Source: Eledone cirrhosa (lineage: Eukaryota). From it: DNA of 64,000 bases. Position 1 is the first letter of the stretch, and each line of letters starts with the position of its first letter. The stretch covers positions 249,240,001 to 249,304,000 of the forward strand of contig OZ024742.1 of NCBI GenBank assembly GCA_964016885.1. Reading direction: 5' to 3'. This document shows, piece by piece, positions 1-59,886 of this stretch. Position numbers and translations under genes: made by a program. Below the pieces are notes generated by a model. That model saw nothing but the letters and a program-made list of their open reading frames with translations. It was not told the origin of the DNA and did not search any database.

Positions 1-302
1 AGGTGGTGTTGTTGTTGTTGGTGGTGGTGGTGGTGGTGGCGCTCGTGCTGGTGGTGGTGGTGGCGCTCGTGGTGGTAGTGTTGCTGTTGTTGGTGGTGGC
101 GCTCGTGGTGGTGGTGTTGTTGGTGGTGGTGGCGGTGGTGGCGATCGTGGTGGTGGTGTTTTGTTGTTGTTGTTGGTGGTGGTGGCGTTCGCGGTGGTGG
201 TGGTGTTGTTGTTGTTGCTGGTGGTGGTGGTGGCGCTCGTGGTGGTATTGTTGTTGTTGTTGGTGGTGGTGGTGGCGGCGCTCGTGGTGATGGTGGTGGT
301 GG

Positions 303-333
<31 letters not shown>

Positions 334-2530
334 GGCGTTCGTGGTGATGGTGGTGGTGGTGTTGTTGTTGTTGGTGGTGGTGGTGGTGTTGTTGTTGTTG
401 GTGGTGGTGGTGGTGGTGGTGGCGCTCGTGGTGGTGTTGTTGTTGTTGTTGGCGGTGGTGGTGGCGCTCGTGGTGGTGGTGTTGTTGTTGTTGTTGGTGT
501 TGGTGGTGGTGGTGGCGCTCGTGGTGGTGTTGTTGTTGTTGTTGGCGGTGGTGGTGGCGCTCGTGGTGGTGGTGTTGTTGTTGTTGGCGGTGGTGGTGGC
601 GCTCGTGGTGGTGTTGTTGTTGTTGTTGGCGGTGGTGGTGGCGCTCGTGGTGGTGGTGTTGTTGTTGTTGGCGGTGGTGGTGGCGCTCGTGGTGGTGTTG
701 TTGTTGTTGTTGGTGGTGGTGGTGGCGCTCGTGGTGGTGGTGTTGTTGTTGTTGTTGGTGTTGGTGGTGGTGGTGGCGCTCGTGGTGGTGGTGTTGTTGT
801 TGTTGTTGGTGTTGGTGGTGGTGGTGGCGCTGGTGGGTGTGTTGTTTTTGGTGGTGGTGGTGGTGGCGCTCGTAGTGGTTGTGGTGGTGTTGTTGTTGTT
901 GTTGGTGGTGGTGGCGGTGGCGCTCGTGGTGGTGTTGTTGTTGTTGTTGTTGGTGGTGGTGTTAGTGGTGGTGCTGTTGTGGGTTGTGGTGGTAGTGGTG
1001 GTTGTGGTGGTAGTGGTGCCCGTGGTGTTATTGCTGGTGGTGTTGTTGGTTGTGGTGGTGGTGCTGTTGGTTGAGGTGGTAGTGGTGGTGGTGGTGTTAG
1101 TGGTGGTGGTGCTGTTGGTTGTGGTGGTAGTGGTGGTAGTGGTGGTGGTGGTGTTAGTGGTGGTGGCGTTGTTGGTTGTGGTGTTAGTGGTGGTGGTGCT
1201 GCTGGTTGTGGTGGTAGTGGTGGTGGTGCTGTTGGTTATGGTGGTAGTGCTGCTGGTGGCTGTAGTGGTGGTGGTGGTGTTGGTTGTGGTGGTAATGGTG
1301 GTGGTGGTGTTAGTGGTGGTGGTGCTGTTTGTGGTGGTGGTGGTGTTAGTGGTGGTGGTGCTGTTTGTTGTGGTGGTAGTGGTGGTGGTGGTGTTAGTGG
1401 TGGTGCTGTTGGTTGTGGTGGTAGTGGTGGTAGTGGTGGTATTAGTGGCCGTGGTGTTGTTGTTTGTGGTGGTGGTGTTAGTGGTGGTGGTGTTAGTGGT
1501 GGTGGTGCTGTTGGTTATGGTGGTGGTGGTGTTAGTGGTGGTGGTGCTGTTGGTTATGGTGGTGGTGGTGTTAATGGTGGTGGTGTTAGTGGTGGTTATG
1601 TTAGTGGTGGTGTTAGTGGTGGTGGTGTTGTTGGTTGTGGTGGTAGTGGTGGTGGTGGTGTTAGTGGTGGTGGTGTTAGTGGTGGTGGTGCTGTTGGTTG
1701 TGGTGCTAGTGGTGGTCGTGGTGTTAGTGGTGGTGGTGCTGTTGGTTATGGTGGTAGTGGTGGTGGTGGTGTTAGTGGTGGTGGTGTTGTTGGTTGTGGT
1801 GGTAGTGGTGGTGGTGGTGTTAGTGGTGGTTGTGTTGTTTGTTGTGGTGGTAGTGGTGGTGGTGGTGATGGTAGTGGTGATGGTATGGTAGTGTTAGTAG
1901 TGGTGTTGTTGGTTGTGTGGTATGGTGGTTATGGTATAGAGTTGTTAATAGTGGTATAGTATGGAGTTGTTAACAGTCGTGTTGTTGTTGGTTGTGGTAG
2001 TAGTGGTGGAGGTGAAGGTAGTAGTGATGGTATGCTGTTGTTAGTAGTGGTGTTGTTGTTAGTAGTGGTGGTGTTGTTGGTTGTGGTGGTAGTGGTGGTG
2101 GTGGTGTTAGTAGTGGTGATGGTATGGTGTTGTTAATAGTGGTGTTGTTGTTAGTAGTGGTATTGTTGTTGGTTGTGGTAGTAGTTGTGGTGGTGGTGTT
2201 AGTAGTGGTGATGGTATGGTGTTGTTAATAGTGGTGTTGTTGTTAGTAGTGGTGTTGTTGTTGGTTGTGGTGGTAGTGGTGTTGGTGGTGTTAGTAGTGG
2301 TGATGGTATGGTGTTGTTAATAGTGGTGTTGTTGTTGGTTGTGGTGGTAGTGATGGTGGTAGTGTTAGTAGTGGTGATAGTATGGTGTTGTTAATAGTGG
2401 TGTTGTTGTTGATTGAGGTGGTAGTGGTGGCGGTGATGGTAGTGGTGATGGAATGGTGGTGTTAGTAGTTGTGATGGTATGGTGGTATGGTGATGGTGGT
2501 GGCGATGGTGAAAATGATGTTGATGGTGGT
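1..2530. repeat. (GGT/GTT/GTA)n compound trinucleotide low-complexity array
   Basis: Continuous GGT/GTT triplets with recurring anchors (ggcgctcgt; ttagtggtg; gatggtatggtgttgttaatag). It produces the spurious poly-Val/Leu ORFs. Confidence 0.95.
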
Positions 2531-3585
2531 GGAAAAGAAGGAATCTGTAGAACGAAAGTTATTACGTCTCATTCACCACCACCTTCGTCTTTCTCTTCTT
2601 CCTTACTAACTGCACAAGGAAGTGTTTATTTACCTTCCCTAACCACTTTATAGTTAGAGGCGTCAGTATGAGTGTCAAAGACTTTCTTTACTAAACATTC
2701 AACCGACAACCAATTGTATGGAAAGGTGATATATCTACAGAGTCGGTCACCCCCACCCTATCGTCTCCTACCCCAAACCTACTTATACCCCTCATCTAAG
2801 TACCTCGTTATCGTAGTCATCGTCGTCATTGTCGACCCCGTCCTAGTTGACATGCTGTTTTCCCTACAAATATGGACTTAACCAGAAATTCGTTTAATTA
2901 ACATTCTCAGTATTGCCTTTTCTAGAACCTCGGTTTAAAAGAGTTGCGGCATTTATTCTGGTCTTTACTTTCCAGCGAAGTAGATTTCCTCATTTCAAGA
3001 TTGGTGGTCTCATCACTCTGTGAATTCCGTACTATTTCTATCGATCTCTATTTCTTCGAACCGCTAATGTACAATTTTAATTGAACAGCGAGCTTAAACA
3101 AAGTCACTCACAAACTCACGCACAAATATATACACATAAAAATTCCACTTAATTCCCATCTACTAATGTCCACTCATAAGTCAATTGGGCAACTTAGGCT
3201 ATAGTAGTGTGTCTCAACTAAATCAAAATATACCTGTTATTTCACTATAAAGTAGACAGCCACCTGTAATTGCACTAGCTATTGCACTAAATAATGTAAA
3301 CAACAAAAATATGCTTTATCTTTATAGTACATATGAAACTAAAAAAAAAAAAATCACTTTAATCTCTCGAATAAACATATACACAGGAAGCTGAAGATTA
3401 CATTTTGTGGGCTGAAATATGAGCTTGCAGACACGAAGTGAAATAAATAAAACATTTATACTTTGGGTTCAAACATTTAATGATAAGTTTAATATATATA
3501 TATATATACACACACATATATATATATATATAAACTTCTGATTAAGTTTTTGAACCCAAAGTATAAACGTTTTATATATATATAG

Positions 3586-3670
<85 letters not shown>

Positions 3671-3677
3671 ATGTATA

Positions 3678-3723
<46 letters not shown>

Positions 3724-3729
3724 TGTATA

Positions 3730-3767
<38 letters not shown>

Positions 3768-4214
3768 ATGTATATATATATATATATATATACATGTGTG
3801 GGTTTGCGTGTATAAAAAAAAGAGAATGTAATGAAGTATGAGAAATGAAGTAAAATTGAATTGTAGATATAGTTATTGGTATAAAGAAAACGAGGGTTAA
3901 GAATGTATAAATCTTATGTATCTCTACAATGTTCTGAAAGATTAAAATATAAGGATTCTCTATCCACTTCAGATAAAAACTTTGAGGAAAATCTTACATT
4001 GAAATCAATAATAAACCTTTAAATCCACCATATGCCCCGCCTCAGTCGAAGGTATTCATTTGAAACTTTACATGCACACACGCATTCACACACAAACACA
4101 CAAATACACACACACACGCACTAACACAAACACAAACACTCACAAACACACACACATACATGTATATATTATATATATATATAAATGTAGGTATATATAT
4201 ATATATATATACCT

Positions 4215-4266
<52 letters not shown>

Positions 4267-4268
4267 TT

Positions 4269-4363
<95 letters not shown>

Positions 4364-4686
4364 AATGTAGGCATATCTACATTTCAGGTGTGCACCATGA
4401 TGGTATTAGTATTGCTATTTCCTTGAACACTAGACCTACTTCCCTCTTCTTCTCTCTGTTGATAACATTAGCCTGTTTATATACAAGTTAAGTACCACAG
4501 GTGATCTCCAATAAATTCCTATAAATCATCTCAACACACACACACACGCACATATATATATATATATATGTAAATGTATATATTTATTACGATGCGTTGA
4601 ATATCAAGGTAGAATATAATACGTAATTTGGTGTAGAGTAGATATGTATAATCCTATAATTATACCATACAACTATATATATATAT

Positions 4687-5140
4687 ATATATCAAAGGTA
4701 TATATTGAGTTAGGAACTCAAAATAATCTCTTACTCGTATATTATAATTGATTGAGTTCCTAATTCAATATATACCTTTGATATATTCGGCTCGGTTTAT
4801 TTGTTGAGCTATTTCAAATGTCGAATAAACCTGGCTGCTATTTTTAGTGGTGTTAGTGTTTGTGAGACACGCTAAGATACCATGTGCGTTATTATATATA
4901 GCACACTATTCAGTTTCTTAATATACTTAGAAGTGTCTAGGATACTAATTTGCCACCCACCGATGAGCAAGGATTGGTATTTCTATTCACAATTAATTAG
5001 TATTGCCAAACAGCAGCAAGCTGTCTGGGTGATTGGTAGTTACCACAATTCCGGTTTGTATTTATTTTCTTGAATTTTTCTTCAGGCAAACCCTATTGTC
5101 TATAGTTAGTATTCTTTTCACCTTAGCGAATCTGGTCCCT
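4687..5140 (+). mobile_element. Penelope-like pseudo-LTR remnant with 5' fold-back and degenerate hammerhead
   Basis: ~35-bp inverted arms at 4687-4721/4752-4786 abut (TA)n; a hammerhead-like fold lies at 4954-5031. Confidence 0.55.
4954..5031 (+). ncRNA. Degenerate type-I hammerhead ribozyme
   Basis: caccca-CcGATGA-gcaa...ttgc-cAAA-cagc agcaa gctg-TC-tgggtg: all three stems pair and a GUC site is present, but there are two core substitutions. Confidence 0.65.
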
Positions 5141-5196
5141 TGCGATTTGAACACATATATGTATATATATGTGTTCGTTTTTTTTATATTCCATTA

Positions 5197-5328
<132 letters not shown>

Positions 5329-5541
5329 TTCTTTCTTCTTCTCTCTTCACTATCACTTCTTTCCCTCATGGCCTTTTGATAGATAAAAGGCGTGCTACGG
5401 ATCGATGTTCTGTTTTATGCATCGAAACATCCAAGATCCGTAGTAAACAGCTGACGAGGGGAAACTTTTCTTCTCTTGTTTGTGTCCCGATTACCTTCTA
5501 ACACTTTGTTTTCAGTAACCACACAGCCTCGCATCGTAACC

Positions 5542-5583
<42 letters not shown>

Positions 5584-5831
5584 TTAGGATGCGAATATAT
5601 ATATATATACAAATAAAGATTCAGCGAGAATCGCATTTCGGCGGGCAGAAAGAGCGAAGCGAAATGCAAAAATCAGAAATGATACTGGCAAAGTGCTCAA
5701 TAGTTAAAGACCAGAGCTAAACAATGTGTTAAGAAGCCATACAAAACTGAAAAGGTGGTCAAGAAGGCATTAACCACCCAAGCCAAAAACCAAATCAAGC
5801 TAAACAGGTCAAAATAAAATAAATGATAAAA

Positions 5832-12477: not shown

Positions 12478-12955
12478 AACAAATATTAGATGCTAGGTAA
12501 AGTGTTTGTTAATGCAAGAAGAAATAGTAAAAGATACTTAAAAACTGCTAAATAAATGAGCTTTTGTTAATTGGTTTAATTCATCTCTGCAGATACGTGA
12601 CAGCGAAATATACAGCAAACTTACGTCGTTAACAGTTGGATTTAATTTACTGTTATTTAAACTTATCATTTTCTTATTAAACACAAATTTACATTCTTCT
12701 TTACACATACCATTAAGTGATTTTCGTGTTGTTATTTTGTCATTGATGTTGTTGAAGTTGTTGTAATTTTTCTTCTGGTAGTTGTTTTTTTTGTTGTCTT
12801 TTGCTTGTTAATTGTTGGTGTTTATATTTATGTTTTATTTTAGGCTTACTGCATAATATGCGTAAATTATTTAAACAAAAGTCCATGTTTTTTGTCTGTC
12901 AATCTATCTAACACGCTATATATCTACTTACATACCTATCTATCTATCTATCTAT

Positions 12956-13135
12956 GGGGGTTGCACATTTTTTCGGGGGTATGTGTTACCCATATGTACT
13001 GTCTCCCCCTATTGGGGAAAATCGACTAATTTTTTAAATTGCATTTGTGATAATATTTTACACGTTTTTATTGTATGTAAACTTCCCCCTTTGTATTTGT
13101 CCCCTTCTTTTGTGCCCCTGTGGCTAATAAAGAAA
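12956..13135 (+). mobile_element. Tx1 LINE 3'UTR fragment A
   Basis: Homologous to the 3'UTR at 16095-16306 and near-identical to 16427-16612; ends AATAAAgaaa followed by (CTAT)n. Confidence 0.85.
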
Positions 13136-13137
13136 CA

Positions 13138-13196
<59 letters not shown>

Positions 13197-13208
13197 ATAT
13201 CTATCTAT

Positions 13209-13468
13209 GGCCTTCTCTCTACATCAGCCTGTAGGTGGAAAAGAGGAAGGAACGAGGGAGCACCCTCTCTCTCTGTGACCCTGAGGAGAAGGGGTTGCAC
13301 ACTTTTTTCGGGTGTGTGTACGACCCCCCCCCCCCAAACGCCTCCTCCCTATTGAGGACTTTATTGTTAATTTTATGTTTGTTATTTGTTTTCTTTACTC
13401 GCCTTTTTGTGTAAACTCCCCTCTTGTATTTGTCCCCTTCTTTTGCGCCCTAATGGCAATAAATAGAA

Positions 13469-13469
<1 letters not shown>
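13209..13469 (+). mobile_element. Tx1 LINE 3' fragment B (last codons + 3'UTR)
   Basis: Aligns to 16019-16306; flanked by (CTAT)n on both sides. Confidence 0.85.
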
Positions 13470-13495
<26 letters not shown>

Positions 13496-13500
<5 letters not shown>

Positions 13501-16306
13501 AGCTGCGGATAGGAATAGGAAGGAAAGGGAGCTAATAGATAGAGTAGAAGAGGCAATTAGAAGCGGCGACGTGGCCAGAGTGCTAGCGTCGAGAACGGCT
13601 TTGAGCCAGTTTTTCGACGCGAAGCACGAAGGCTGCGTTGTCCGAAGTAAAATACGTGCTCTAGGGAACGAGGGGACCAAAGCTGTTAGCTGGGCCCGCG
13701 TGACAGAGGCCAACAGTGGAACTAAATCCACCATCCGGTCTTTGCGAGACCTGGATGGACGGGCGATTCTTGAGCCTAAGCAGATGTGTGAGGCCTTTCA
13801 AAGGCACTTTGCCCGACTGTTCGGGAGGGACGGGGAGCCGGTTGGGAACGTGGACTTCGGTCCATACCTCGACGGCCTGCCGCGCCTCTCGGACAGGGAG
13901 GCGAAGTCCTGCGAGGAGCCGATTTCGGCCGCTGAGATAGAGGACGTGTTGAGCCAATGCGGCAAACGCAAATCCCCGGGTCTCGATGGTCTTCCTTACG
14001 AATTATATCTAGCTATGCCGGACTTGTTCCCCGATCTCCTCGAGGCGGTCTACTGCAACTGGCAACAGAACGGGAGAATTCCCTGTACTGTGACCAAGGG
14101 CGTAGTCACGCTAGTGAGGAAGGACGAGAACAAGGGGGACGAAATAAGTAACTTCAGGCCCATAACACTGCTAAATACAGAGTTACAGATTTTGGCCAAG
14201 GTGCTAGCAAAGAGGTTGGCGCTTGTCGTGGGCAACCTGGTGGGAGATGCGCAGACATGCGCTATCCCGTCCAGGTCCATCCATGACAACCTCCACCTCA
14301 TGCGATACATCATAGAGAGGGTTGGGAACGAACCCGGCTTTGGTGGGGCTCTGATCAACTTGGATCAATCTAAGGCGTTCGATAGGGTCGACCATGGTTA
14401 CCTGGATGCGGTGCTAGCGGCGGCAGGCTTCGGACCCGTTTTCAGGGGCTGGATCACTGCTATGCACAGCAGCCGCATCTGCTCTAGGGTCAAGGTGAAC
14501 GGCTACCTCTCGGAGCCGTTCCAAATCGCGCGGTCCATCCGACAAGGGTGCCCTCTCTCCTCCCTTCTGTATGTGTTGACTCTAGAGCCACTACTGCGGA
14601 AGTTGGAGTTGTTGCAGGGCATCCCTTTGGAACCGGGATTGCGGAAAGCGGTGTCGGCCTACGCCGATGACGTGACAGTAATGGTGTCGACGGCCTCCGA
14701 AATCGAGGCGGTCGGCACCTTACTGGAGGAGTACGAAAGGTTCACAGGGGCTAAGCTGAACCGGGACAAGTTGATCGGTTTGCAACTCGGCACGTGGAGG
14801 GGCAGACCGATGCCCTCCGATGGCGTCGTCGGACGCTGGACGGAGGGCCCGGTGAAGTTGCTCGGGGTCTGGTTCGGACCGGACCTCCAGGTGGAGAAAA
14901 ACTGGGCGGAGGTTACGAACAGGGTGTTTGCACTGACCCAGAAGTGGGCCAGTTGCAAACTATCCCTGAAAGGTCGGGCGGAGGTGGCGAACACCTACAT
15001 AGCGTCCGTCATCTACTACCGCCTGACCGTAGTGCCCTGCCCAAGGGAAACCCTCACCAAGATGGAGCGCGCGCTCTTCCAATTCCTTTGGAAGAGGCGG
15101 GCTCCTATGGTGAGGAGATCCATCTGCTGTCAACACCCTTCGAAAGGAGGGCTGGGGATGCCGTGGCTAATGATGCGTAAACACGCATTAAGGCTACGGC
15201 ACCTCTACGTATTCCTCACCGGACAACCGGTGTGGGCCTCGTTTGTGAGACGAACCTTTCCCAGACTCGTCTCACTCACCGAGCTGCAATCCTGGGTCAA
15301 GCAAAGACCGAGAAAACTGGGCGCCTGGCACACTGAGTGTGCCCAGGCGCTCACCGCCCTCTGGCAGGCGGATCCGGTTATCAGTGGAGACTCCACCGCA
15401 ACATTCTATAGAGGGCTGGTACGCAGCAGGTGCGACGACGCCCTCGGAGAAGCCCTAGACATGGAGGAGGACGAACTGGCCAGCCTGTTCGGTAGGACAT
15501 TCAGCCCGGGACCTATGGACAACTTCCAGAAGTCCCTGGCCTGGCAGTGCTACCGAGGGGCTTTACCCGTTCGAGAAAGGCTCTACAGACACGGGCGCCC
15601 GGGTAGGGACCCCGCCAAAAAGATCTGTCCCAGATGCGTGTGCGACGAGGAAACCGTTGCACACGCATTGGTACACTGCTCGGGCGTAGCCGATCTGTGG
15701 GGCTATGTCGAACAACTGCTGTCATGGGTGGGACCGATCCGGTTGACCACCGAGTCTATTGTAATGATCAAGCCGCCTCCCCCCTTCAAAGAGGAAGCAG
15801 AGGCGGTGTTTCTGTGCGTAATAGCCATGGCGAAAGAGGTTGTATGGTGGACGCGTCTGAAAGGACTGAGGTCAGGCACCTTTCTCTCTGGCCAACAACT
15901 GGTCCGTTTCTTCCGATATCATTTCGGAAGAAGGATCAGGATGGAGAGAGAGAGGTGCTGCACCCCAGCCGTTTCTATGAAAGATGGGTGAAAGTGGCGA
16001 GAATGGCCCGTGTGAATGGGCCTTCACTCTACATCAGACTATAGGTGAGGAAGATGAAAGACCAAGGGAGCACCCCTTCTCTGTGCTCCTGAGGAGAAGG
16101 GTTGCACACTTTTTTCGGGGGTGTGTGCGACCCCCCAAGGCGCCTCCTCTCTATTGAGGATTTTGTTAAAAATTTTATTTTTTGTTATATCTTATTTTAT
16201 TTTTATATTTTGTTATTGCCTCCTCCTTATTGAGGACGCCTTTTTGTGTAAACTCCCCCCTTTGTACTTGTCCCACTTTTGATGCCCTAGTGGCAAATAA
16301 AAGAAA
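13496..16306 (+). mobile_element. 5'-truncated Tx1-clade non-LTR retrotransposon
   Basis: GC-rich RT frame, 3'UTR, AATAAA at 16296, (CTAT)n on both flanks. Confidence 0.95.
13571..15991 (+). CDS. Tx1/L1-type ORF2, partial: reverse transcriptase + C-terminal zf-RVT-like motif
   Basis: KSPGLDG, FRPITLLN, DQSKAFDRVDH, QGCPLS, YADD, CPRC..ETVAHALVHC. The frame is open from the truncation point; a frameshift near the GA run at ~15945 moves the true C-terminus (…NGPSLYIRL, ends 16044) to another frame. Confidence 0.92.
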   Translation: MARVLASRTALSQFFDAKHEGCVVRSKIRALGNEGTKAVSWARVTEANSGTKSTIRSLRDLDGRAILEPKQMCEAFQRHFARLFGRDGEPVGNVDFGPYLDGLPRLSDREAKSCEEPISAAEIEDVLSQCGKRKSPGLDGLPYELYLAMPDLFPDLLEAVYCNWQQNGRIPCTVTKGVVTLVRKDENKGDEISNFRPITLLNTELQILAKVLAKRLALVVGNLVGDAQTCAIPSRSIHDNLHLMRYIIERVGNEPGFGGALINLDQSKAFDRVDHGYLDAVLAAAGFGPVFRGWITAMHSSRICSRVKVNGYLSEPFQIARSIRQGCPLSSLLYVLTLEPLLRKLELLQGIPLEPGLRKAVSAYADDVTVMVSTASEIEAVGTLLEEYERFTGAKLNRDKLIGLQLGTWRGRPMPSDGVVGRWTEGPVKLLGVWFGPDLQVEKNWAEVTNRVFALTQKWASCKLSLKGRAEVANTYIASVIYYRLTVVPCPRETLTKMERALFQFLWKRRAPMVRRSICCQHPSKGGLGMPWLMMRKHALRLRHLYVFLTGQPVWASFVRRTFPRLVSLTELQSWVKQRPRKLGAWHTECAQALTALWQADPVISGDSTATFYRGLVRSRCDDALGEALDMEEDELASLFGRTFSPGPMDNFQKSLAWQCYRGALPVRERLYRHGRPGRDPAKKICPRCVCDEETVAHALVHCSGVADLWGYVEQLLSWVGPIRLTTESIVMIKPPPPFKEEAEAVFLCVIAMAKEVVWWTRLKGLRSGTFLSGQQLVRFFRYHFGRRIRMERERCCTPAVSMKDG

Positions 16307-16320
16307 TATATCTATCTATC

Positions 16321-16395
<75 letters not shown>

Positions 16396-16426
16396 ATCTC
16401 TCTCTCTCTCTCAATATATTCTATAT

Positions 16427-16612
16427 GGAGATGAGGGTTGCACATTTTTTTCGGGGGTCTGTGTTACCCATATAAACTGTCTCCCTCTATTGGGGAAAAT
16501 CGACTAACTTTTAAATTCCATCTGTGATAACATTTTACACGTTTTTATTGTATGTAAACTTCCCCCTTTATATTTGTCCCCTTCTTTTGTGCCCCTGTGG
16601 CTAATAAAGAAA
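16427..16612 (+). mobile_element. Tx1 LINE 3'UTR fragment A' with target-site duplication
   Basis: Near-identical to 12956-13135; a 32-bp flank is duplicated at 16395-16426 and 16670-16701. Confidence 0.85.
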
Positions 16613-16614
16613 TA

Positions 16615-16670
<56 letters not shown>

Positions 16671-16957
16671 ATCTCTCTCTCTCTCTCAATATATTCTATA
16701 TAGAATAGAAAACGAAAAATCAGAGAATATGCTCCGAAATCATAAGACGTGTCCGTCGAACCTGCGGGTCCAGAATCAGACAGATCCACACAATGATCGC
16801 GTCTCGAGCTGTCCGCCGGGGAAACATTTGTAACACAATAAATTGAGTTCAGATGCATCACTGAGTTTTCGTTTTCTATTCTATCATACTCTGCTCTGTA
16901 AGAGCATAGAGTGCTCAACCGGCATACCGCCTATGGAAGCATCTTAGCTACCATCAG

Positions 16958-17070
<113 letters not shown>

Positions 17071-17177
17071 TTTCGTATCTCCAAAGAAATACGGTTTTTA
17101 GGAAGCCGTAGCTATGAAAAGACCGGGGGGGGGGGGCTAACGCCCTCTGGTGATGTCCAGCAGAAGCAAGGGTGACA

Positions 17178-17222
17178 ACCGTCTAAGCATTTCTAGCTTA
17201 ACTGGCCTTCGTTTAGGGCGGT
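17178..17222 (-). ncRNA. Degenerate minimal hammerhead (inverted copy)
   Basis: Reverse complement: accgcc-ctaaacga-aggccagttaagcta-GAAA-tgct-TA-gacggt; the core is mutated. Confidence 0.55.
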
Positions 17223-17644
17223 CCCTCCCACCCACCGCTTGCGACTGATGGATTAGAAGACAGACGAGAATATATATAGTTTTCTCGTCTGTGTAAATGA
17301 GGTGATTAATCTCATTTGCATATGAAGCTGCATTTAAAAAGAAATAGGTCTCGCTTCAAGCATAGCTTTATACAATATGTATAAATATTTCGTATCTCCA
17401 AAGAAATACGGTTTTAGGAAGCCGTAGCTATGAAAACACCGGGGGGTAAACAACGAAATATTTATAGATATTGTATAAAGCTATGCTTGAAGCGAAACCT
17501 ATTTCTTTTTAATTATAAGTTGAGCCGACTTATACAACTTCATATGCAAATGAGATTAATCACCTCATTTACACAGACGAGAAAACTATATATATATTCT
17601 CGCCTGTCTTCTAGTCCAGCAGTCGCAAGCGGTGGGTGGGAGGG

Positions 17645-17688
17645 ACCGTCCTGACGAAGGCCAGTTAAGCCTGAAATGCACACACGGT
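17645..17688 (+). ncRNA. Minimal type-I hammerhead ribozyme (cleavage region mutated)
   Basis: accgtc-CTGACGA-aggc cagttaa gcct-GAAA-tgca-ca-cacggt. Combining both copies gives GAAATGCATAGACGGT with a palindromic stem III. Confidence 0.7.
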
Positions 17689-17839
17689 TGTCCCCCTTGC
17701 TTCTGCTGGACATTACCAGAGGGCGTTAGCCCCCCCCCCCAGTTTTTTGCATAGCTACGGCTTCCTAAAACCGTATTTCTTTGGAGATACTAAATATTTA
17801 TACATATTGTATAAAGCTATGCTTGTAGCGAAACCTATT

Positions 17840-18079: not shown

Positions 18080-19153
<1,074 letters not shown>

Positions 19154-21310: not shown

Positions 21311-21625
21311 GTTCTTTGAGTCTCAGTCATTGATGTTAGTTAACTGGAAAGTTTGTTGAAATGAATATCAAGCCACTACCTGCAGCCTCAGATATTCAGG
21401 ACGTATCGGAGGGTTCTTGCTGTTCCCAGCAAGCAAGCCTTTTGAAGTGTTCCAAAAAGCGGGGCGGGACCAATTTTCTTTAACCATCTTTGGAAACTCT
21501 TTGACATAGTACCTAGTGCGCCTAAGACAATCGGGACCACTTTGACTTCATGGCAGTTCCAAATTCTTTTAACCTCCCACTCTAAGTCTTGGTATCGGTT
21601 AATACGAAAACCCATTTCATTCGTC
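21311..21625 (-). mobile_element. R4/Dong-like LINE 3' end (restriction-like endonuclease C-terminus)
   Basis: RYQDLEWEVKRIWNCHEVKVVPIVLGALG...LQKACLLGTARTLRYVLNI*, short UTR, then (TAA)n on the minus strand. Confidence 0.85.
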
Positions 21626-21632
21626 TGACCTC

Positions 21633-23580
21633 ATGAATATTAGCAGTAGCAGCCGTAATTACAGCAGCAGCAGCAGCAACAGTGGCAAGGAAAACAACAG
21701 TAGCAGCCGAAACAGCATCAGCAGCAACAGTGACAAGGAAAACAACAGTAGCAGCCGAAACAGCATCAGCAGCAGCATAAACAACAACAGCATTAGCAGC
21801 AACAGCAACAACAACAGCAGCAGCAGAAACAACAACAACAAGCACAGCAACAGCGGCGGCGGCAGTAGTCGTAGTACCTGCAGCAACAACAAAAGTAACA
21901 GCAGCTCTGACGACAACAACAACAACAGAAGCAAAGAAAAACCAATCTCGTTTGCAGGTATCGCAAAGAACCTGGAAAACATCCTCATAATAAATGAGGA
22001 ATTACAGGAAGCGAAGAAGATGGTGACGAAAACCGGACACCGAGCAATCTGCAAGGCAGCCGAAAATTTTTTCGAAACCCAGCAGCACTGTACGGACACG
22101 TACCGTACAGTAAGCACAAAATCCCGTAGGGTTGAAAGAGCCACAGAGGCTCAAATACAAAAAGCCTTAGGGTCTGTGTGGCAGCGGAAAACGCATATCA
22201 CCCGAGGCAAGAAATATGCCACTGTAGACGTGCTTTTTGCCACACCCCAGGAGGCAAAGGCTCAATCCTTAGTGATCCTAAGGAGCGAGGAAATGGTGTT
22301 GGTGCCCTCCTACTGCGGGCAAAAAATTGTTAGGGTCAAACTTAACCACGCCCCCCCCCCCCCCCCCTCCCCCGGGATAGCCCCTTCTTGGCTGGCCGCG
22401 TCTGTCCTCGTCGGAATCGAGGACAAAACAACTGTACTGCAAGTACAGAAAAAAGTAAGAGAAGATTGGGTCGGCACCTCCATTGAGATGTTAATCCAAA
22501 CCAACCAGGAGTGCATCGAATCTATCCTGGATGTGATAGATTCGATAACGGCACTCAACTGCCCATAAGTGTTGAGGGCAAATTCCGAAATGCTTTTGCT
22601 GTGGATCGAAGACTCACCTCAGGGCCTTCTGCAACGAGAAGACCCTGAGAAAGGAGAAAACCCCCCTCTTTCCGAAACCGGCTCCACGGCTACCAGCAAC
22701 AGGACAAGCGGCAACCAGGAACGATAGGTCCGTGGCACCCATACCCACGCCACGGAAATCAAGAACAGCAGCAGCAGTGGAAGTATTAACAACAACAACA
22801 GTAATACCAAATGCAGCTGCAACAGAGACTCCACTGCAACATCACCAACAACAACAAGTGAAAGAGTGGAGCTGGTACCCCTCCCCGAACTCACAGAATC
22901 AGACATGGAGTGTGAGGTGGGAGAGGGATGGCAAAAGTCGTAAGAAGGCACAAACGCAGAAGCAGAGCATCGCCGCCTTCGAAAAGGGAGGAAAGAAATG
23001 AAAAAAGGGTAAAGGCTACTGCAAAGAGACTCACAGCAGCAACACCACCAACATCATCACCACCCACACTAGCACCACCATCACCACCGGCGACAACCCC
23101 ACCGCCAACAACAACAACACCTTCAACACCACCACCACAAGCACCAACATCGCAAACACAACAACAAAACACACACACCCAGCAACAACGACAAGAAAAT
23201 AGCAGAACCACACCCCACCTCCAGAAAAACAAATGCACGGCAATAAATACACACAACAAGAAACTAATGACTTACATAATTGAACACACAGACATTTCAC
23301 AGCACGACTACATAATACCAGCACCAATCAAAACGCCAACGAACATAAACTGGTAAAAATAGCACAGAAACAATACACAAACATTAAAACGAAATTCCCC
23401 AACGCAGTTGTGGATTTCAGAGACCTAGGAGGGACTCTCAACCGGAGAGTATATTCGGACATACTCATAGAAGAACCGACGACCAGCCGAAGGGACGATT
23501 CAACGGTCCCTTCACCAGACGATCAAGTGAAAAGGGATGGAGAAACCATCCTTCCTCTACGAAAAGTACGGTAAGTGGGC
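21633..23580 (+). pseudogene. Tx1 ORF1 (gag-like), frameshifted
   Basis: Low-complexity N-terminus, RRM-like segment (VDVLFATPQEA...VRVKL), zinc knuckle CFCCGSKTHLRAFC at 22591-22632, Thr/Pro-rich tail. Confidence 0.7.
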
Positions 23581-23609
23581 TTTCCCATCTTTTCCACTCC
23601 ATTTTAAAT

Positions 23610-26600
23610 ATGACCTCACTCAGAATAGGCAGCATAAATGCGCGTGGCTTGGGGTCGTCATGGAAGCAGGGTCACCTGCTCAACGACCTCAGGTCACTAA
23701 ACATAGATGTAGTGGCCATCAGTGAGACCAGAATCTCCGAAGCACCGATCTTTGGCGGCTACGATGTGTACGCATCTTCCAGCCGTCCTGGATTGGGGGG
23801 AGGAGTTTCTGTGCTTTTTCGGAGAGGTTTGGATCTCGCCATACGGGCCATCTTCCTAGACCCAGAGGATAAGTTGGTGGTGCTGGACGTGACCAGCGGA
23901 GACGGGCAAGATTTCAGGCTAGTGGCGGTCTATGCCCCGACAGGAGCAAGGCGGCCTGATTTCTTCAGGCGTCTGGAGACCTTTCTTGGAACGTCCCGCT
24001 CTTTAGTGTTAGTGGGCGACTGGAACGGGATCTTGGATGCACGCTGGGACTGTGTGGGTATTAGCGGATAGAGGTGAAGGGTGCAAGAGCCTCACCAACC
24101 TGCTCAGGCGTTTTGAACTGTCTGACAGGTACCGATTGGATTTCCCGAATGTGCCAATGTGGACTTGGACAAATCGCATAGGGTCATCCAGATCATATCT
24201 AGATAGAGTGTTTTGTAGGGAAATAGATAGGTCTAGCATAGGCTGTCCACAATTCAAGATAGTCAGCTACACGGACCACAAATTCGTGATCTGTGTGCTT
24301 GACTTAGGTAGGCTTCATAGACGAGGACCCGGCTACTTGAAGCTAAACGCGTCCTTACCAGCGTGCAAGGGCTACAGAGACCGGATTAGCGAACTAGTTA
24401 AGCGGGCGTTGACGGGGGCCATCGTCAACAACAAGTGGTGGTTTGCTCTGAAAAGAGCGATTAGAAGAGAATCGATTAGGTTTGGTAAGCCTTTAGCAAT
24501 AGAGAAAAAAAGAGCAGAGGGAGAATTAGTTAGAAAATTAGACGAGGCGCTTAGCAAAGGTTTTGCGACCGACGTGCTTGCGGCGAAATTGGCCCTTGAC
24601 CAATTCTTTAATGCAAAGCACGAAGGCTGCGTTGTCAGAGCTAGGGTGCGTGCTCTCAGACACGAGGGGACGAAAGCCGTTTAATGGGCCCGAGTGGCGG
24701 AGGCGCGTCGTGGCAACAACGCCACGATCCGGTCTTTGGTGGACCACGACGGGCACATGCTACACGATCCCGCGAAAATGTGTGAAGCTTTTCAGCGACA
24801 CTTCGCTCAGCTGTTCGGGGGTAGCGGTGGGCCGGGTCGAGGGATGGACTTTAGTGTCTACCTCGACGGACTGCCGCGGCTCTCGGCCACTGAGGCGGAG
24901 TGTTGCGAAAAGCCGATAACAGCCGCTGAAGTAAGGGAGGCAATGACTGGCTGCACAAGGGGTAAATCGCCTGGTTTGGATGGTCTGCCCTATGAACTTT
25001 ACGTACAGGTGCCAGATTTGTTCGGAGGCCTCTTGGCGGACGTCTACTGCAACTGGCAACAGAACGGGAGAATTCCCAGTTCTGTGAGCCGAGGAGCGGT
25101 GGCACTGCTGAGAAAGGGTCCGAACAAGGGGGATAACATAGATAATTTCCGGCCTATAACTCTGCTAAACACAGAGTTCAAGATTTTGGCCAAGGTGCTA
25201 GCAAAGAGGTTGGCGCTTGTCGTTGGTGGTCTGGTGGGAGAGGCGCAGACATGCGCCATTCCCGACAGATCTATCCACGACAACCTCCACCTCATGCGAT
25301 ACATCGTAGAGAGAGTAGCTAGGGAACCTGGCACGGGTGGGTCCTTGATCAATTTAGATCAGTCGAAAGCCTTCGATAGGGTCGACCATCGTTACCTAGC
25401 GGCAGTCCTGAGGGCGGCTGGCTTTGGGCCCGACTTCAGAGGTTGGATCGCTGCCATGCACAGCGACATCTGCTCTGTGGTGAGAGTGAACGGTCACCTT
25501 TCGGAACCGTTCAACATCATGCGCTCGGTCCGCCAAGGATGTCCCCTCTCGTCCCTCTTGTACGTATTGACTCTCGAGCCATTACTGCACAAACTGGAGA
25601 CGTTGAGGGGGGTCCCCCGCGAACTAGGATGCGGAAGATCCGTGTAAGACGATGTCACCGTAGTGGTGTCGAACGCCAAACACATCGGCGATCGGCACTA
25701 CACTAAGAGAATACGAAGCGGTGACAGGAGCAATGATCAACCAGGAAAAGTCAGTGGGCCTGCAGCTCGGCACCTGGAGAGGCAGGTCCATGCCGTCCAA
25801 CAGTGTCGTCGGACGCTGGACGGACGGACCGGTTAAATTGCTAGGGTCTGGTTCGGTCCGGACCTCCAAACGGTCAAAAACTGGGACGAGGTGACGAGCA
25901 GGATGGCTTCTCTCACCCAGAAATGGGCGGAGAGGAAGATATCCCTGAAAGGTCGAGCGGAAGTGGCTAACGCCTGACCGTCGTACCTTGTCCTAAGCCC
26001 CGCCTGACTGCCCTGGAGCGTTTGTTCTTTCGCTTTTTGTGGAAGGGATGCGCTCCGATGGTCAGGCGGTCCATCTGCTGTCAACACCCGCTACGTGGAG
26101 GGCTGGGAATGCCGTGGCTGATGATGCGCAGACACGCGCTCAGGCTACGACATCACCACCTCTTCCGCGACGGTGATCAGGTCTGGTCGCCGTTTGCTAG
26201 ACATGTATTTCCCCAGCTCGTTTCCTTAACGGAGCTGCTGTCCTGGGTCAAGCGAAGACCGAGAGGGAGCGCCTGGAGACTGGAATGTCTTCAGTCGCTC
26301 ACAGCCCTCGACCAATCGGGCAATGTGATCGGTGGAAACTCCACCTCGGCGTTCTATAGAGGATTAGTGGAGGGGAAGAGCGACGACGTACTTGGGGAAA
26401 CTCTAGGCGTCGACGAAAATGAACTAGCCAATCTCTTCGGAAGAACTTTCGGGCCGGGACCTATGGACAATTTGCAGAAATCTCTGGCCTGGCAGTGCTA
26501 CCGAGGAGCCTTGCCAGTTCGGGATAAACTCTACAGGCATGGAGGTGCCGTCAACCGGGCATGTCCGAGATGCGCGCAGGGTGACGAAACCGTCCTGCAT

Positions 26601-26984
26601 GCGCTCGTACAGTGTCCGAAAATTGCTGACTTGTGGGTTTATGTCGAACACATGCTGTCGCGTGTAGGACGGATCCAGCTATCAGCTGAGTCCATCGTGA
26701 GGATTGCCCCGCCCTCTTCCTTTAGCCGGGAAGGGCAGGTAGTTTTTATCTGTCTGGTGGCCATGGCGAAAGAGATAGTATGGTGGACACGTTTGAAAGG
26801 GCTGAAGACGAGCACTTACCTCTTCGGTGATGCCCTGATTAGATTAACGTTTTTAAAATTTCATTTGAAAAGGAAAATCAGGCTAGAGAGGGAAGTGCTC
26901 TCTTCCCAGAATTTTGTTGAAAGATGTGTGAGAGAGGCAAGAATGGCCCGAGTGAATGGGCCTACTCTGGTTATGTGTCTGTAA
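23610..26984 (+). pseudogene. Tx1 ORF2 (APE endonuclease-RT-zf), disrupted
   Basis: MTSLRIGSINARGL, ISETR, VYAP, VGDWN, YLDRVF, YTDHK, QGCPLS. Stop at 24682, YADD region damaged at ~25645, several frameshifts. Confidence 0.95.
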
Positions 26985-27231
26985 ATTAAAGGTGGAAAAC
27001 TGAGAGAGGACACTTGCCCTGGTGGTCAGGGTCACTGTGGCTTTTTAATGGGCTTTCTCCACGAATGTCCCTCCGAAGTCTCCCCCCTATTGGGGAATTT
27101 TTCATTGTTCTATTATTACATCCTCTGTTTCTTGTTTTTTACACGCAGACATGCCCATTGTACCGCCCTGCATTGTCCTGTACTGTCCTTAATGTCTACT
27201 TTATGTAAACCCTTGTGGTTAATAAAGAAAG

Positions 27232-27314
<83 letters not shown>

Positions 27315-43823: not shown

Positions 43824-46563
43824 TAGCAGTTTAGCCCGGCGTTGCTCGGGTTTGTTCATTTGCTATGAAAAGTTACATACAGGTAAACGTGGTTTGAAAG
43901 CGAATAAGCTTATCAATTAAGTACATAAAGCAGTTGAACCGGTTATTAAAAGTTACGAACCAATTAGCATTTTGGTCAATCAATGATGGGTTAATAATCT
44001 TCCAATAGCGAATTTAGTAGACCAAAGTTGCAAGTTGGTGGCCCTGATGCCGCTGGGTGTCAGATTTAGTCCGCCATGAGATACCCTACCAGGAAATAGT
44101 GTTCCAGACGGCATAGCTCCAACACCTGCACCAACATCTATAGCACCTCTTTGTAGACGATATTGCGTGTCATCCCTTGAGGAGAGTAAGCAAAAAGTCC
44201 ATTCCTGCTCCCTGCGCGGGAACAGGCAACATAAAGTTGGCCATGGGAGAAGCATGGCTCCCCCAAATGGATGCCCGCCACCGACAATGTTTGCCCTTGT
44301 GACTTGTTAATGGACATGGCAAAACATGGTCTCACTGGGAATTGGGATCGCCGGAAATCAAACGGGATATCTGACGCCGAGGGGAAAAGGTTCATCCTTG
44401 GAATGAAAACATTCTCCCCTCTTCCGCACCCCGTTACAATGGTGGCCTCAATCAAGTGGGTGTCAGTGACTTGACGAACATGCGAGTACCGTTGCACTGC
44501 TTTGGTGGACGCAAGTTCCTTATTAGCATAATGGGTCAGCCAACCCTAAGCTTAATAATGTGAGGTGGGAGCCCTGGGGGCTCAAGGAGATTTAATAACT
44601 CAACCGGATAATTAACGATATCGTCGGGGTCTGATTTGAAGATGTGCTCTTTACCGGGAATCTTCTCAATCAGCTGCTCGTTAATAAAATTAACCATGGT
44701 ATTTTTCGGAGCAAGGATGGCTCTTTCGCTGAGCCAATCGAGGTTTTTAAAGTTAGATGAGACATTAGGAAAAACTGCTTCCCAAAGGTCAGAAGGGCTG
44801 CTCACAATGTTGCACAGGGTGTCGATTGCTATGCCACCCTTGTCATCCGCAGGGATCTTGCCCTCACTAAGTGCTAAAATGTTCTGTGCTGCAGACATGT
44901 TGTCACCATACAAATGAGCACGCATATTTGTGCTCAGGTACAAACTATTCACCTGGAGCCACAACATGGACGACTTAAGACAGGCACGCACTTCATCAGC
45001 TCTTGTCCATTTGTGGATGACAGGCAGCGTTTTTCGAAAATCCTCTGATAGCACAAGGGTTACGCCACCCATAGTAGCCGTAGAATCACTAATGTCTTTC
45101 CGGGCCTCGTCCAATGCCTCAAAGGCACCCTTGTGTGCCATTGTGCACTCATCCCAAACAATGAGGCAACATCTTTTGAGAACCAGAGCTTTGTGTGAAC
45201 TCTTGCTGATATTGCATGTTGGTGTTTCAGTTTTTACTAAATCCAAAGGGAGTTTAAAGGTTGAATGTGCTGTCCTGCCTCCCGGCAGCAAAGTAGCAGC
45301 GATCCCGGACGATGCAACGAACAACGCAACTTTTTTCTCCTGACGAATCTTAGCGAGAATCAAATTCGTTACAAAAGTTTTTCCGGTACCCCCAGGAGCG
45401 TTTTTTATTTGGGGGATCAGGGGGGGGGGGGGTGACCTTGAGGTATAACCAGTCAGTAGTTCCTTCAAATGCTCTGGCAGTTCCGTAAGAGGGGGCAAGG
45501 TGACCTTACCGTTTAAGCAGCACATTGAAAGGTGGCTCCCCAGCCCACTTTGTAGCATTTCAGAATTGGCAATTGAAGCGCATCTCGCCTATATTTATGT
45601 CAGAGCGCATCGAGTAATTAACGTTTTGCTCATACTTGAAATCCCCTAGGTGCCAGTAAGAGCTGTTGGGGCTCGTCACACCGCGTGCAGCTTCTCGTCG
45701 TCGACTGTTACGCTTGAACGTAGAACATTGGTTGTGTGGTTGGTGGGAAGGTCTGGCAGCAATAGCAGAAGCAACATTTGCAATGCTAATGGACCGCCCG
45801 TCTGCATCTTCAGAAGCCATGGAAGTAGTCATAGCCGCAGCGTTCGTAGGAAGGCGAGCCGTCCGTTGTTTTAAACGTTCCAAAGACCTGGAAGCAGCAG
45901 TAGTCGCATCGTTTCTAGCCAGGTGCTTCGACCTTTGTTCACGGCTCTCTGAAGCCCTGGAAGAAGCCTGGTATGAAGCCATTTTGGCTAGGCGTGCGGT
46001 GCGCTGTTGGAAACTTTCAGCGGCTCGACATTCTGCTGAACGTAAGGCTGTCTGTGAAAGTCTTGAAGCATTTTCCTCAGAGGACCCGTTTGCTATAGTA
46101 GCCTTTTGCGCCACTGCTGACGCGGTATGTCGACTGAGGCGACTTCTCTTTTTAGGTGGCATTTTGTCCAAAAAAAAGGGTGAAAGTTACTTCTACAGAA
46201 AAAATTGACTTTGAAAGTCTACTGTCTGTTTAGGAATATTGTTATTGTTGTTGTGATACAAATGTTAGTAAGTAAATGGGTATCGAAAAATATGGGGTGA
46301 AAGTTACTTCAACATAAAAATTGAATTTGAAAGTATAAGGCTGATAATTGAATGTAAAAAGATTTATAAGAAAGGACCCCCAAAAAAATTTACAGCTATT
46401 TGTATGTATGTGTGTATTTTTATGTCGAAAAGAAAGGGTTAAAGTTACTTGTACAGAAAAATTTAGTTTGAAAGTGTAAGGCCGATGTGTGTGTAAATTA
46501 AGTGACATGTATTTGTATGTATGTGTGTATATGTATGTATGTGTGTATATGTATGTATGTGTG

Positions 46564-52489: not shown

Positions 52490-56105
<3,616 letters not shown>

Positions 56106-56950
56106 CATAGTACATCTTTAACTATCATGCATTCTGCAATATATTCTTTATTAAATAAAAATAGCTGTTTTTAACGTCAAACAATGGTATTAATCACCAT
56201 TGTAGATATTTTCATGCTGTAGTTATTTTGCATAATCCACTTCATTAAACCAGACAGACATATAATTAAATGTGTTTTTATTGCTTTACTGGTTTCAGTC
56301 ATTAGACTTGCGGCCATGCGGGAGCTAGATAACCTAACATTGTATCTTCTTATAACACGTTAGGGTGTGGTTTCGTTACTATTTCTATGAAGTCCTAGAA
56401 CAGCATAAAGGCGCTCTCGTCGGCTGGCTGAAACACATTCTCTATAATTTATGTATCAAGCAGAAGCAAAAAACGATAAAAACGATGCCAAATAGGAAGA
56501 AGGCACGGAAGTATGAGATCTGCTTACATGAAATACATCGAAAGCTATAGACTTCTTCTGCAATGCAGTTGCGTTTATTTGGTGTAAGAGTGCCAGCTAC
56601 TTGATGGGAAAGTATTAGATAAATCTATTGCTTATATTCACAATCTGCAATCTTCTGTTATAAAGGCTAGTAAATATAAAATAGCATTCTCAGTGTGTAT
56701 CATGTGACTAGTCAGAAGTTAAGATGTACGGAATACAGGGTCGTACATTCCTCTATACGCTTGCCTGATGCCTACAGATTGAGTGGAATATCGCGAAGAT
56801 GAAGACGATAATTTCACATACTATACAACTGTTGACAATAAATCTAGCAACACGCACACTTAGACGCATACACATATACACAAACACATATATGCACATA
56901 CTCACAAACGGAAACACACTTACATACACCCCTCAGATACCTCTCTCTCG

Positions 56951-57030
<80 letters not shown>

Positions 57031-58005
57031 GATGATGCCATGAGAGTGTCAGAATAAGGGTGTATGCCCGGGGGATTCATTGTGTGTATATGTATGAGTT
57101 TCTATTCACAAGTGTGTGAATGTGCGCGCTAATGGTTTTACTTAGAGCGGGACAGTGTATCAGCAAAGTATATTTACGGTTATGCATTTGCACGTACACA
57201 GCATGTAAATATCCATATACACATATATGTGTTTAATACTTTATATGTGTATATGTTTGCATTTCTCTCTCATACACACACACGCGCGCGCGCGCGCACA
57301 CACACACGCACACTCACACACACACATACATACATACATACATGATATGATGGCTTTCCCCTCGTTATCGAGTATGGTCATTGCACAATATAACATTATT
57401 AATAGTTATTAATTCTATTGTGCAATGCCTGAGCGTGAAGATCTTTTTTAAAGTGAGGAAAGACTGTGCCAATCCCACTCTCTGAGCGACAGTAGCTATA
57501 ACCCGAAAAGAAGAAAAGATCAACATCATCGGTAACTACTGAGCCGCGTGTTGATTGTGTCTTCGAAATTTCAACATGGTTTCTTGTCAAATAGTTCTAC
57601 TAATACTACTGTCCAACTACTGCCCTTCTTCTACTCCATACATGCTGGTTCTTTATATCTTGTTAAATATTTCGTTGTACATACAGCTTAATATTTGACA
57701 AGTCAGATCAGTAAGTTCTCGAGGGCACAGTCAATCTCTTATTTTCGTTTTAAATGTACGTAATTATTTGTATTTACGCCAAGTATTGAGTCTTTTCACT
57801 CGTTAGTTAATCTTAGTTTCGAAGTGAATAGTTTATAGGGCAATTTTAAATGTATCCTGCAGTATTAATTAAGAGGAAAAGAGAAAGTTCGAGAGAAAAT
57901 TCATTATCCACAAATGATCTTATGAATGAGCTTTTGATAAGTTTTACTGACACTTTAATGAAATTCAACTGGGAGATAGAACAGAAATTAGAACAGAAAT
58001 TAATC

Positions 58006-58051
<46 letters not shown>

Positions 58052-58444
58052 GATTAAATTTTAAGCAAAGAATCGCTGCTTTCACCCTTAACGGGACCGT
58101 CTGAAACTAAAGAAAATAAACATGTGGACACAGAAGTAAATATTTCGAAGAACGTTGCAACCGAAGGAAAACAGGAAGGGGATACTTTGGTCCGTGAAAA
58201 CGTTCCCTGGCAATGAACGGAAAAAAAGCGAGGATAATTACGCCGTTATGTGGAGCGATGAGAACAATTTCACGCAAAGACGAATAAATACAAAACAAAA
58301 GCATAACCACATTTATAGTATAAATGGAGTCATTAGACTAATATTCTATTTAGGAAACCGAATGATTCTCAGTTCTGGAGTTTAAGAATAATGCAAATAA
58401 ATTTGTTGAACGAAAATGACAGAGGTTTTTCAAATCGTAAAGTA

Positions 58445-58640
58445 AGTAATAATTGTTTCTCCTTTTGGCACAAGGCCAGCAATCACCCAGTACATTACTG
58501 GTACTTTATTTTATCGACCCCGTAAGGAAGAAAGACAACGTTAACCTCGGCGGAATTTGAACTCAGATCATAAAGGGCCGTAACTTTTTGCTGCAAAGCA
58601 TGGCGTCAGAGCCTCTATCGATACTGCCAATCCACCACCG
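58445..58640 (-). mobile_element. tRNA-derived SINE
   Basis: Same family as 5832; interrupts a partial Helitron copy. Confidence 0.85.
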
Positions 58641-58713
58641 TAAAGTAAGTAATAATAGTTAAGATATAGGCCAGCACATACACACACACACATGCACACA
58701 CACACACACACAT

Positions 58714-58875
<162 letters not shown>

Positions 58876-58879
58876 AGGT

Positions 58880-59095
58880 TATATTTAATTTTTTGGGATA
58901 CAACAAGCAAAATATTTTTGGATTCCAACCAGAATGGTTGCATTTTCTCAGAGTATGTCAATATTTATTTATAAAACTAACCTATATTATATTTTATCTG
59001 ATGAAAGCGCACCATAGTTTGCCTTGGTGGCCCTTAAAATATGTATAATGAAATAAATATGGTTTTATAAATATAGTTTCCATTTGTTAATATAT
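58880..59095 (+). repeat. Diverged solo copy of the hammerhead unit from the palindrome
   Basis: Aligns to 40660-40690 and 41075-41230; hammerhead at 58991-59053 with GAAA changed to AAAA. Confidence 0.75.
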
Positions 59096-59101
59096 TGTAT
59101 A

Positions 59102-59147
<46 letters not shown>

Positions 59148-59362
59148 ATTAGTATATTTACCAACATATGCGTACAGATGTACACTAATGCTAGCAAATA
59201 CATAAGTTATGTCATAGTACCTAGGTGGTTCAATGCAGGAGGATGCAGAACAATTATATGAAAGACGTAAAATAAGAAAATTTTAAAATTAAAAATTAAC
59301 TTACTAAAATTTTAGGAAGTAAGTTAATTTTTAATTTTAAAATTTTCTTATTTTACGTCTTT

Positions 59363-59494
<132 letters not shown>

Positions 59495-59614
59495 GCATAT
59501 ATACATACACGTGCATACGCGAATATACACGTCATGCGGTCTTTATATATTTTTATGTATTATCCTTATCGAGCCCTCTACGGATTTTAGTCTTCACATT
59601 TATTATTATTACTA

Positions 59615-59808: not shown

Positions 59809-59886
59809 TATATATATATATATATATTACTATATATATATATACACACACACATATATACATATATATATATATATATATGCATG

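Follow-up and report, generated by a model that had tools for sequence, protein, structure and literature searches.

Among the retrotransposons that insert specifically into microsatellites are Kibi and Koshi of teleosts, long interspersed nuclear elements (LINEs) of the Tx1 clade that, according to the available portions of PMC4494074 and PMC3812793, target (TC)n and (TTC)n respectively. The latter source, in the same portion, places Dong in (TAA)n, Waldo in (ACAY)n and Mino in (AC)n, and the microsatellite targets it names there are ACAY, AC, TC, TTC and TAA, with GATA not among them; the former, likewise in the portion available, describes crocodilian Tx1 families in (TTCC)n and (TTTC)n. 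How LINEs with an apurinic/apyrimidinic endonuclease (APE) gain and change such targets is described in that part of PMC3812793 as not well understood, and the accessible text of two octopus repeat papers (PMC13282606, PMC8967140) lists L1-Tx1 families with no target stated. Here we consider a 64,000-nucleotide stretch of the genome of the octopod Eledone cirrhosa (contig OZ024742.1, forward-strand positions 249,240,001 to 249,304,000; hereinafter the window), in which four 5'-truncated LINE copies of the L1/Tx1 group, all on the plus strand, share a single (TATC)n tract. We propose that these are very probably four separate insertions of young APE-type LINEs, which enter C^TATCT sites in a single orientation, mostly within (TATC)n, and whose insertion is likely initiated by an endonuclease nick at AGATA^G together with RNA pairing. 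Tx1 elements that target microsatellites are known; the TATC target is apparently new, in that no TATC- or GATA-targeting LINE was found in the literature searched, with the qualification that Repbase, Kojima & Fujiwara 2004, and Fig. 3 and the supplements of PMC4494074 may list one.

The four copies (c1 to c4; Table 1), placed by alignment of their 3' ends, are stacked head-to-tail on one strand, as the original prediction, made from the sequence alone, had claimed. Its further claim of at least three subfamilies was also borne out: over the common 3' parts c1 and c4 are 94% identical, c2 and c3 86%, and the remaining pairs about 76%, which points to three or four subfamilies in the stack. 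Among the loci sampled c2 has no match above about 85%. Poly(A) is present in none of the four; each ends in AATAAA followed by nothing, A or TA, then GAAA, two variable bases (CA, TC, TA and TA from c1 to c4) and TATC. The predicted AATAAA..GAAA terminus without poly(A) thus stands, but not its supposed passage directly into CTAT, since two variable bases intervene. As had also been noted, c1, c2 and c3 begin immediately after (CTAT)n. A unique stretch precedes c4, and it forms part of an exact 87-nucleotide (nt) duplication (16340-16426) that recurs after c4 (16615-16701) and there too starts in TATC, so that c4 fits the TATC pattern as well. This duplication is far longer than the 8-20 nt typical of most copies. 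A 3' transduction, in which c4 would have been carried along with c3, was rejected because related copies extend beyond the c4 start in element sequence: 14 of the 16 other matches listed include the first base of c4 and extend 5' of it within the element, and c1 and the copy at L013 begin within c4. In a domain search the 842-codon open frame of c3 covers the reverse transcriptase (RT) and zf-RVT without APE and, relative to full-length copies, c3 carries a 2-nt insertion near the C-terminus of the second open reading frame (ORF2), such that c3 itself is dead. Recent activity, which the original prediction had read from this frame, is instead shown by other, intact copies that are about 99% alike.

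The wider family was surveyed by searches across the 3.0-Gb genome. With the C-terminus of c3 as query, a protein search of the genome gave 55,937 first-look candidates, of which 150 were scored; a query from the sister group discussed below gave a similar number, so that the count spans the whole related group (about 56,000-62,000 first-look candidates), within which the A and B subfamilies alone contribute about 2,000 exact 3' ends. Eighty stretches around the scored matches, mostly on contig C1, were sampled (20 with long frames and 60 with shorter frames, picked on that basis), and 77 of these loci yielded 83 copies with a 3' end, of which 65 match a reference at 99% or more and 15 are full-length. 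The recovery of a full-length copy, which had been suggested along with the original prediction, succeeded at L050 (5,725 bp, with an ORF1 of 595 amino acids and an ORF2 of 1,145). Its ORF2 contains Exo_endo_phos (PF03372), RVT_1 (PF00078) and zf-RVT (PF13966, below its cut-off); its best match in the PDB is L1 ORF2p, far above R2, and the catalytic APE residues of the family align with those of the human protein (PDB 8sxt, E 4.8e-48). Based on the APE, RT and C-terminal cysteine-rich zinc motif in ORF2, the element is an APE-type non-long-terminal-repeat retrotransposon of the L1 group, and its copies display the hallmarks of that group, namely 5' truncations, a fixed 3' end and target-site duplications. 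Membership in the Tx1 clade is likely, judging from architecture and from named homologs such as the 'Transposon TX1 149 kDa protein' (26%) and fish proteins with ZCCHC3-type domains; the nearest named homolog comes from Argonauta hians (67% over the RT). The L050 ORF1 has weak zf-CCHC matches (E 0.05 and 0.003, under the Pfam cut-off), and Atlas matches of ORF1 to CCHC and ZCCHC3-type clusters (0.89-0.92) offer a lead only. Intact APE-RT copies about 99% alike are present, and the family has been recently active.

Certain sampled copies are rearranged. At L060 (junction at oriented 4243), L067, L079 and L093 the 5' junction runs on in other parts of the element, marking internal deletions or recombinants, and L060 has a 1,532-codon frame that joins part of ORF1 to ORF2. 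L065 and L085 have an identical 5' junction and flank with a different 3' flank and different tail bases, consistent with a duplication after which copies recombined or underwent conversion, and at the 5' junction of L097 a short inverted repeat surrounds a (TA)n run immediately upstream of the element.

The preference for TATC is evident at both ends of the element. A genome-wide pattern search found NN-TATCT after 1,672 of the 1,974 exact A/B 3' ends; in the sampled copies TATC lies within 8 nt of the 3' end in 72 of 83 cases and TAT stands at +3 in 80 of 83. On the 5' side eight of the 83 junctions were dropped (four at a locus edge, four with element sequence upstream), leaving 75 clean ones, of which 57 have at least two TATC units in the preceding 24 nt, against a chance of 0.38% before a random position of the window. 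The corresponding figure for truncated copies alone is 45/62, and GATA, the same repeat on the opposite strand, was found at none of the 75. The 5' flanks are therefore not random, which is one of the points on which the original prediction had staked itself. According to the available part of PMC4494074 a family counts as microsatellite-specific when more than 20% of its flanks consist of one repeat; the values here are 85% of 3' ends genome-wide and 76% of sampled 5' ends. In 13 of the 75 copies the 3' end of another family member lies no more than 200 nt upstream, so that stacking is common.

The nature of the site emerges from the duplications and from an empty allele. An automatic search returned non-pure duplications for 27 of the 75 copies, some being chance matches in minisatellites; the 15 judged clear by eye all begin with TATC two bases after GAAA, measure 8-20 nt (11 nt at L046, 18 at L056, 13-15 at L059, 16-19 at L079 and 8 at L085) and are preceded by C in 14 cases. 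At L059 a contig from public run X1 joins 1434 to 5406, skipping 3,971 nt that comprise the element, TA and one copy of the duplication, and a single TATCT site remains. It follows that the TATCT site predates the insertion, that the two tail bases, which take the place of poly(A), are derived from the element, and that the insertion is polymorphic; the empty site, whose inspection had likewise been suggested, thus carries the motif. The tail bases also track element lineage, with a nearest-neighbor agreement of 0.67 among 84 copies versus a mean of 0.32 and a maximum of 0.48 in 2,000 shuffles. The target is accordingly a short motif, C^TATCT, found mostly but not only in microsatellites, as minisatellites, short TATC runs and (TA)n are also entered. 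The original prediction of a family specific for (CTAT)/(ATAG) in fixed orientation hence survives in its site preference and orientation, and gives way on two points: the motif is short and not strictly a long array, and the targeting element is a group of subfamilies, not a single family. At L050, L086/L087, L091 and L121 the insertions occupy the TATCT-containing step of minisatellite units, some of these arrays holding two copies. Contigs from runs of other organisms, X5 and X6, also match parts of the L059 element, with identity in X5 reaching 99% across a few hundred bases; one or more further labelled species thus harbor close relatives of the family.

Target-primed reverse transcription is established for L1, R1 and R2, and the following scenario is built upon it. 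The endonuclease would nick the bottom strand at AGATA^G, as the starts of the duplications suggest; the transcript would continue past the weak AATAAA, extend into the adjoining repeat and end in NN-(UAUC)n; and this tail-less RNA would anneal to the freed GATA end to prime copying, with the top strand probably cut at a variable distance, usually 8-20 nt away. Each insertion would leave TATC on both sides, such that the site persists for later copies and head-to-tail stacks result. We favor the nuclease as the likely determinant of which repeat is chosen; the available part of PMC3812793 states that endonuclease cleavage is believed to be the main factor in microsatellite targeting.

A control group for targeting is provided by a sister group associated with (ATT)n, of which a near full-length but broken copy lies in the window between (ATT)12 and (ATT)26. 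The 5' flank of this copy resembles the ATT tail of a common short repeat that also stands before the L168 and L171 copies. The two groups are 68% identical in ORF2. In the sister group (ATT)n follows 50 of 55 3' ends (2 of the 55 having been misplaced by the script) and precedes 20 of 27 readable 5' ends, comprising 14/14 full-length and 6/13 truncated copies, against a background of 1.6%; ATT was found at 0/62 truncated 5' ends of TATC copies. A second ATT lineage (F) was found, and intact copies exist of both ATT lineages (E and F). A tree of 21 rows unites the TATC families in one clade (97/97), next to the two ATT lineages, with no order fixed at the base, which points to one target switch in the group, its direction not being set by the tree. 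Searches for further target families, seeded with two outside homologs, returned only ATT-group copies among 60 loci. In the endonuclease hairpin loop, bounded by the aligned counterparts of L1 T192 and S202, the main difference between the groups lies at position 194 (S in TATC versus I in ATT), and at position 152, the aligned counterpart of L1 R155, the TATC group has Y where the ATT group has C or R; from this comparison both positions may be regarded as candidate determinants, as leads only. For L1, the available part of PMC1950540 implicates R155 and the hairpin loop in DNA contacts downstream of the nick, finds no base-specific reading of the +1 nucleotide, and reports that hairpin-loop grafts gave no clean transfer of specificity.

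Several observations weigh against nuclease-directed insertion at C^TATCT. About 15% of the exact A/B 3' ends lack NN-TATCT, several copies lie in (TA)n, TACC, TTTC or unique DNA, and nine ends of older subfamilies lie in (TGTC)n, all of which indicates that the specificity is loose; a separate (TGTC)n family was not found, as 9/9 pattern matches have 3' ends like those of the TATC subfamilies, the pattern being blind to other 3' ends. A duplication of at least 8 nt is absent in 7 of 75 copies (L053, L062, L075, L089, L100, L102 and L105). TATC-like filler separates the duplication from the 5' end in L050 (22 nt, at oriented 2059-2080), L056 (25 nt) and L046 (11 nt), all full-length or nearly so, which implies that part of the 5' TATC was carried or added and is not target; the transcript may have brought such filler along from the upstream flank, or it could be added at second-strand joining. 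At L109 runs X1-X3 gave only the filled allele, so the empty allele was seen at one of the two loci examined. Young copies and contig C1 are over-represented in the sample, in which both L065 and L085 are counted despite their common 5' junction. Among the truncated sister-group copies the repeat precedes only the 6/13 given above. Moreover, the hairpin loops are near-identical (ANRSGSSRS in TATC versus TNRIGSSRS in ATT), and the 21 endonuclease positions that divide the two groups all fall on a single evolutionary split, such that no single residue can be picked out.

The similarity of the hairpin loops would be accommodated if a loose endonuclease cuts near TAT in both groups and the repeat is set mainly by pairing of a UAUC or AUU tail with the nicked strand, the target thereby being inherited from the site of the parent copy. 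The lack of poly(A), the inheritance of the tail bases with lineage, the TAT common to the TATC, ATT and secondary (TA)n targets, and the apparent extra TATC before the duplication of L061 would all agree with such guidance by the tail. We nevertheless consider it unlikely, though deserving of attention, as the C before 14 of the 15 clear duplications lies outside any RNA-primer pairing, the two endonucleases differ at those 21 positions, one of them aligned to L1 R155, and endonuclease cleavage is credited with the leading role in the literature cited above. On a similarly tentative footing, we suggest that two mobile LINE groups with near-identical hairpin loops may have split onto different microsatellites, with either the read-through tail or a residue or two of the endonuclease setting the target.

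Much further from the evidence is random insertion with the (TATC)n seeded by the element's own tail, the 5' TATC then coming from template jumps or from the tails of earlier copies. The filler at L050 and L056 and the 13 of 75 5' flanks that are tails of earlier copies would be expected under it; yet the empty allele of L059 already contradicts it with its TATCT site, the duplications join TATC to unique sequence on both sides, an earlier copy stands upstream in only 13 of the 75 as against 5' TATC in 57, and several copies (L046, L059) have a single TATC unit after the 3' end, so that we hold it to be very improbable. We give still less credence, indeed hardly any, to insertion at random with selection or assembly effects afterwards retaining only those copies that lie in microsatellites, or to a single insertion that was locally duplicated. 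The great wealth of microsatellites in the genome would favor such readings, but against them stand the strict orientation (GATA at 0/75), the fixed phase of the 3' junction, the family-specific repeat (TATC versus ATT) and copies about 99% alike, and the four copies in the window come from different subfamilies and are differently truncated. Endonuclease-led insertion at C^TATCT thus remains our preferred reading of the stack.

Beyond the stack and the sister-group copy the window contains tandem repeats, as well as segments and frames that by eye resemble other mobile elements (Table 1).

Table 1. Features of the window (positions counted from its first base; UTR, untranslated region)
Feature	Position	Strand	Basis or comparison
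(CTAT)n target tract, 5' of c1	12936..12955	+	sequence and junction reading
c1: 3'-UTR fragment, subfamily C	12956..13135	+	identity to other genomic copies of up to 98%; uncertainty of 2 nt in the 5' boundary
CA tail and (TATC)n, about 18 units	13136..13208	+	sequence
c2: ORF2 stop region and 3' UTR, more distant subfamily	13209..13469	+	alignment
TC and (TATC)n spacer	13470..13496	+	sequence
c3: 5'-truncated subfamily A copy, RT and zf-RVT	13497..16306	+	reference positions 2918-5725, 99.3% to full-length L050
TA tail, (TATC)n and (TC)n-AATATATTCTATAT; final 87 nt are the 5' copy of the c4 duplication	16307..16426	+	sequence
c4: 3'-UTR fragment, subfamily C, independent truncation	16427..16612 (ends GAAA)	+	99.5% to several genomic copies
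TA tail and 87-nt 3' copy of the c4 target-site duplication, starting in TATC	16613..16701	+	sequence
Near full-length, broken sister-group copy between (ATT)12 and (ATT)26	21312..27232	+	internal control
(GGT)n-like tract, 2.5 kb	1-2510		
Long inverted and repeated segments right after the stack, like a non-autonomous DNA transposon	17060-17260, 17620-17830; 17290-17560		by eye
Minisatellite, 37-bp unit, 5.4 copies	18650-18848		
Frame resembling Pif1/Helitron-type helicase	44536-46186	-	label by eye
Frame resembling Penelope-type RT fragment	53570-54298	+	label by eye
Frame resembling RTE-type RT fragment	60630-61865	-	label by eye

The presence in one genome of TATC and ATT sister groups, both with intact young copies and 68% identical in ORF2, makes the question of nuclease versus tail directly testable. 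A target programmed by the tail, or else by one or two residues, would, if true, amount to a retargetable, repeat-guided insertion system and would explain target switching by APE LINEs. The group accounts for a large share of the young LINE activity in this genome, and as every insertion duplicates its repeat, it bears on the growth of microsatellite-rich octopod genomes.

In relation to known systems, the elements resemble Kibi and Koshi in being APE-type LINEs inserted specifically in a microsatellite, a likeness drawn from target behavior, and differ in using C^TATCT within (TATC)n, not (TC)n or (TTC)n, and in their octopod host; they behave as these two families do without belonging to either. 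With the crocodilian families they have in common a tetranucleotide target and, probably, an element of Tx1 type; those families, in the part of the account available, are described with old repeats, in contrast to the intact copies about 99% alike, the polymorphic insertion and the different repeat found here. Human L1 ORF2p is comparable in its APE-RT-cysteine-rich ORF2, aligned catalytic residues and duplications of similar length. L1 uses TTTT/AA with poly(A), and thus differs in both target and tail; the ORF1 found here, for its part, has a weak CCHC knuckle match. Dong has its (TAA)n/(ATT)n target in common with the sister group. Dong, however, belongs to the R4 clade with a restriction-like nuclease, and Waldo and Mino to the R1 clade, whereas the sister group has an APE and an L1-like ORF2. 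SART1Bm and TRAS1 likewise are APE LINEs with a single orientation and a constant insertion point within a short repeat, theirs being the telomeric repeat; SART1Bm needs a long poly(A) tail according to the available part of PMC7265360, whereas the family described here has no poly(A) and only two inherited bases before its target.

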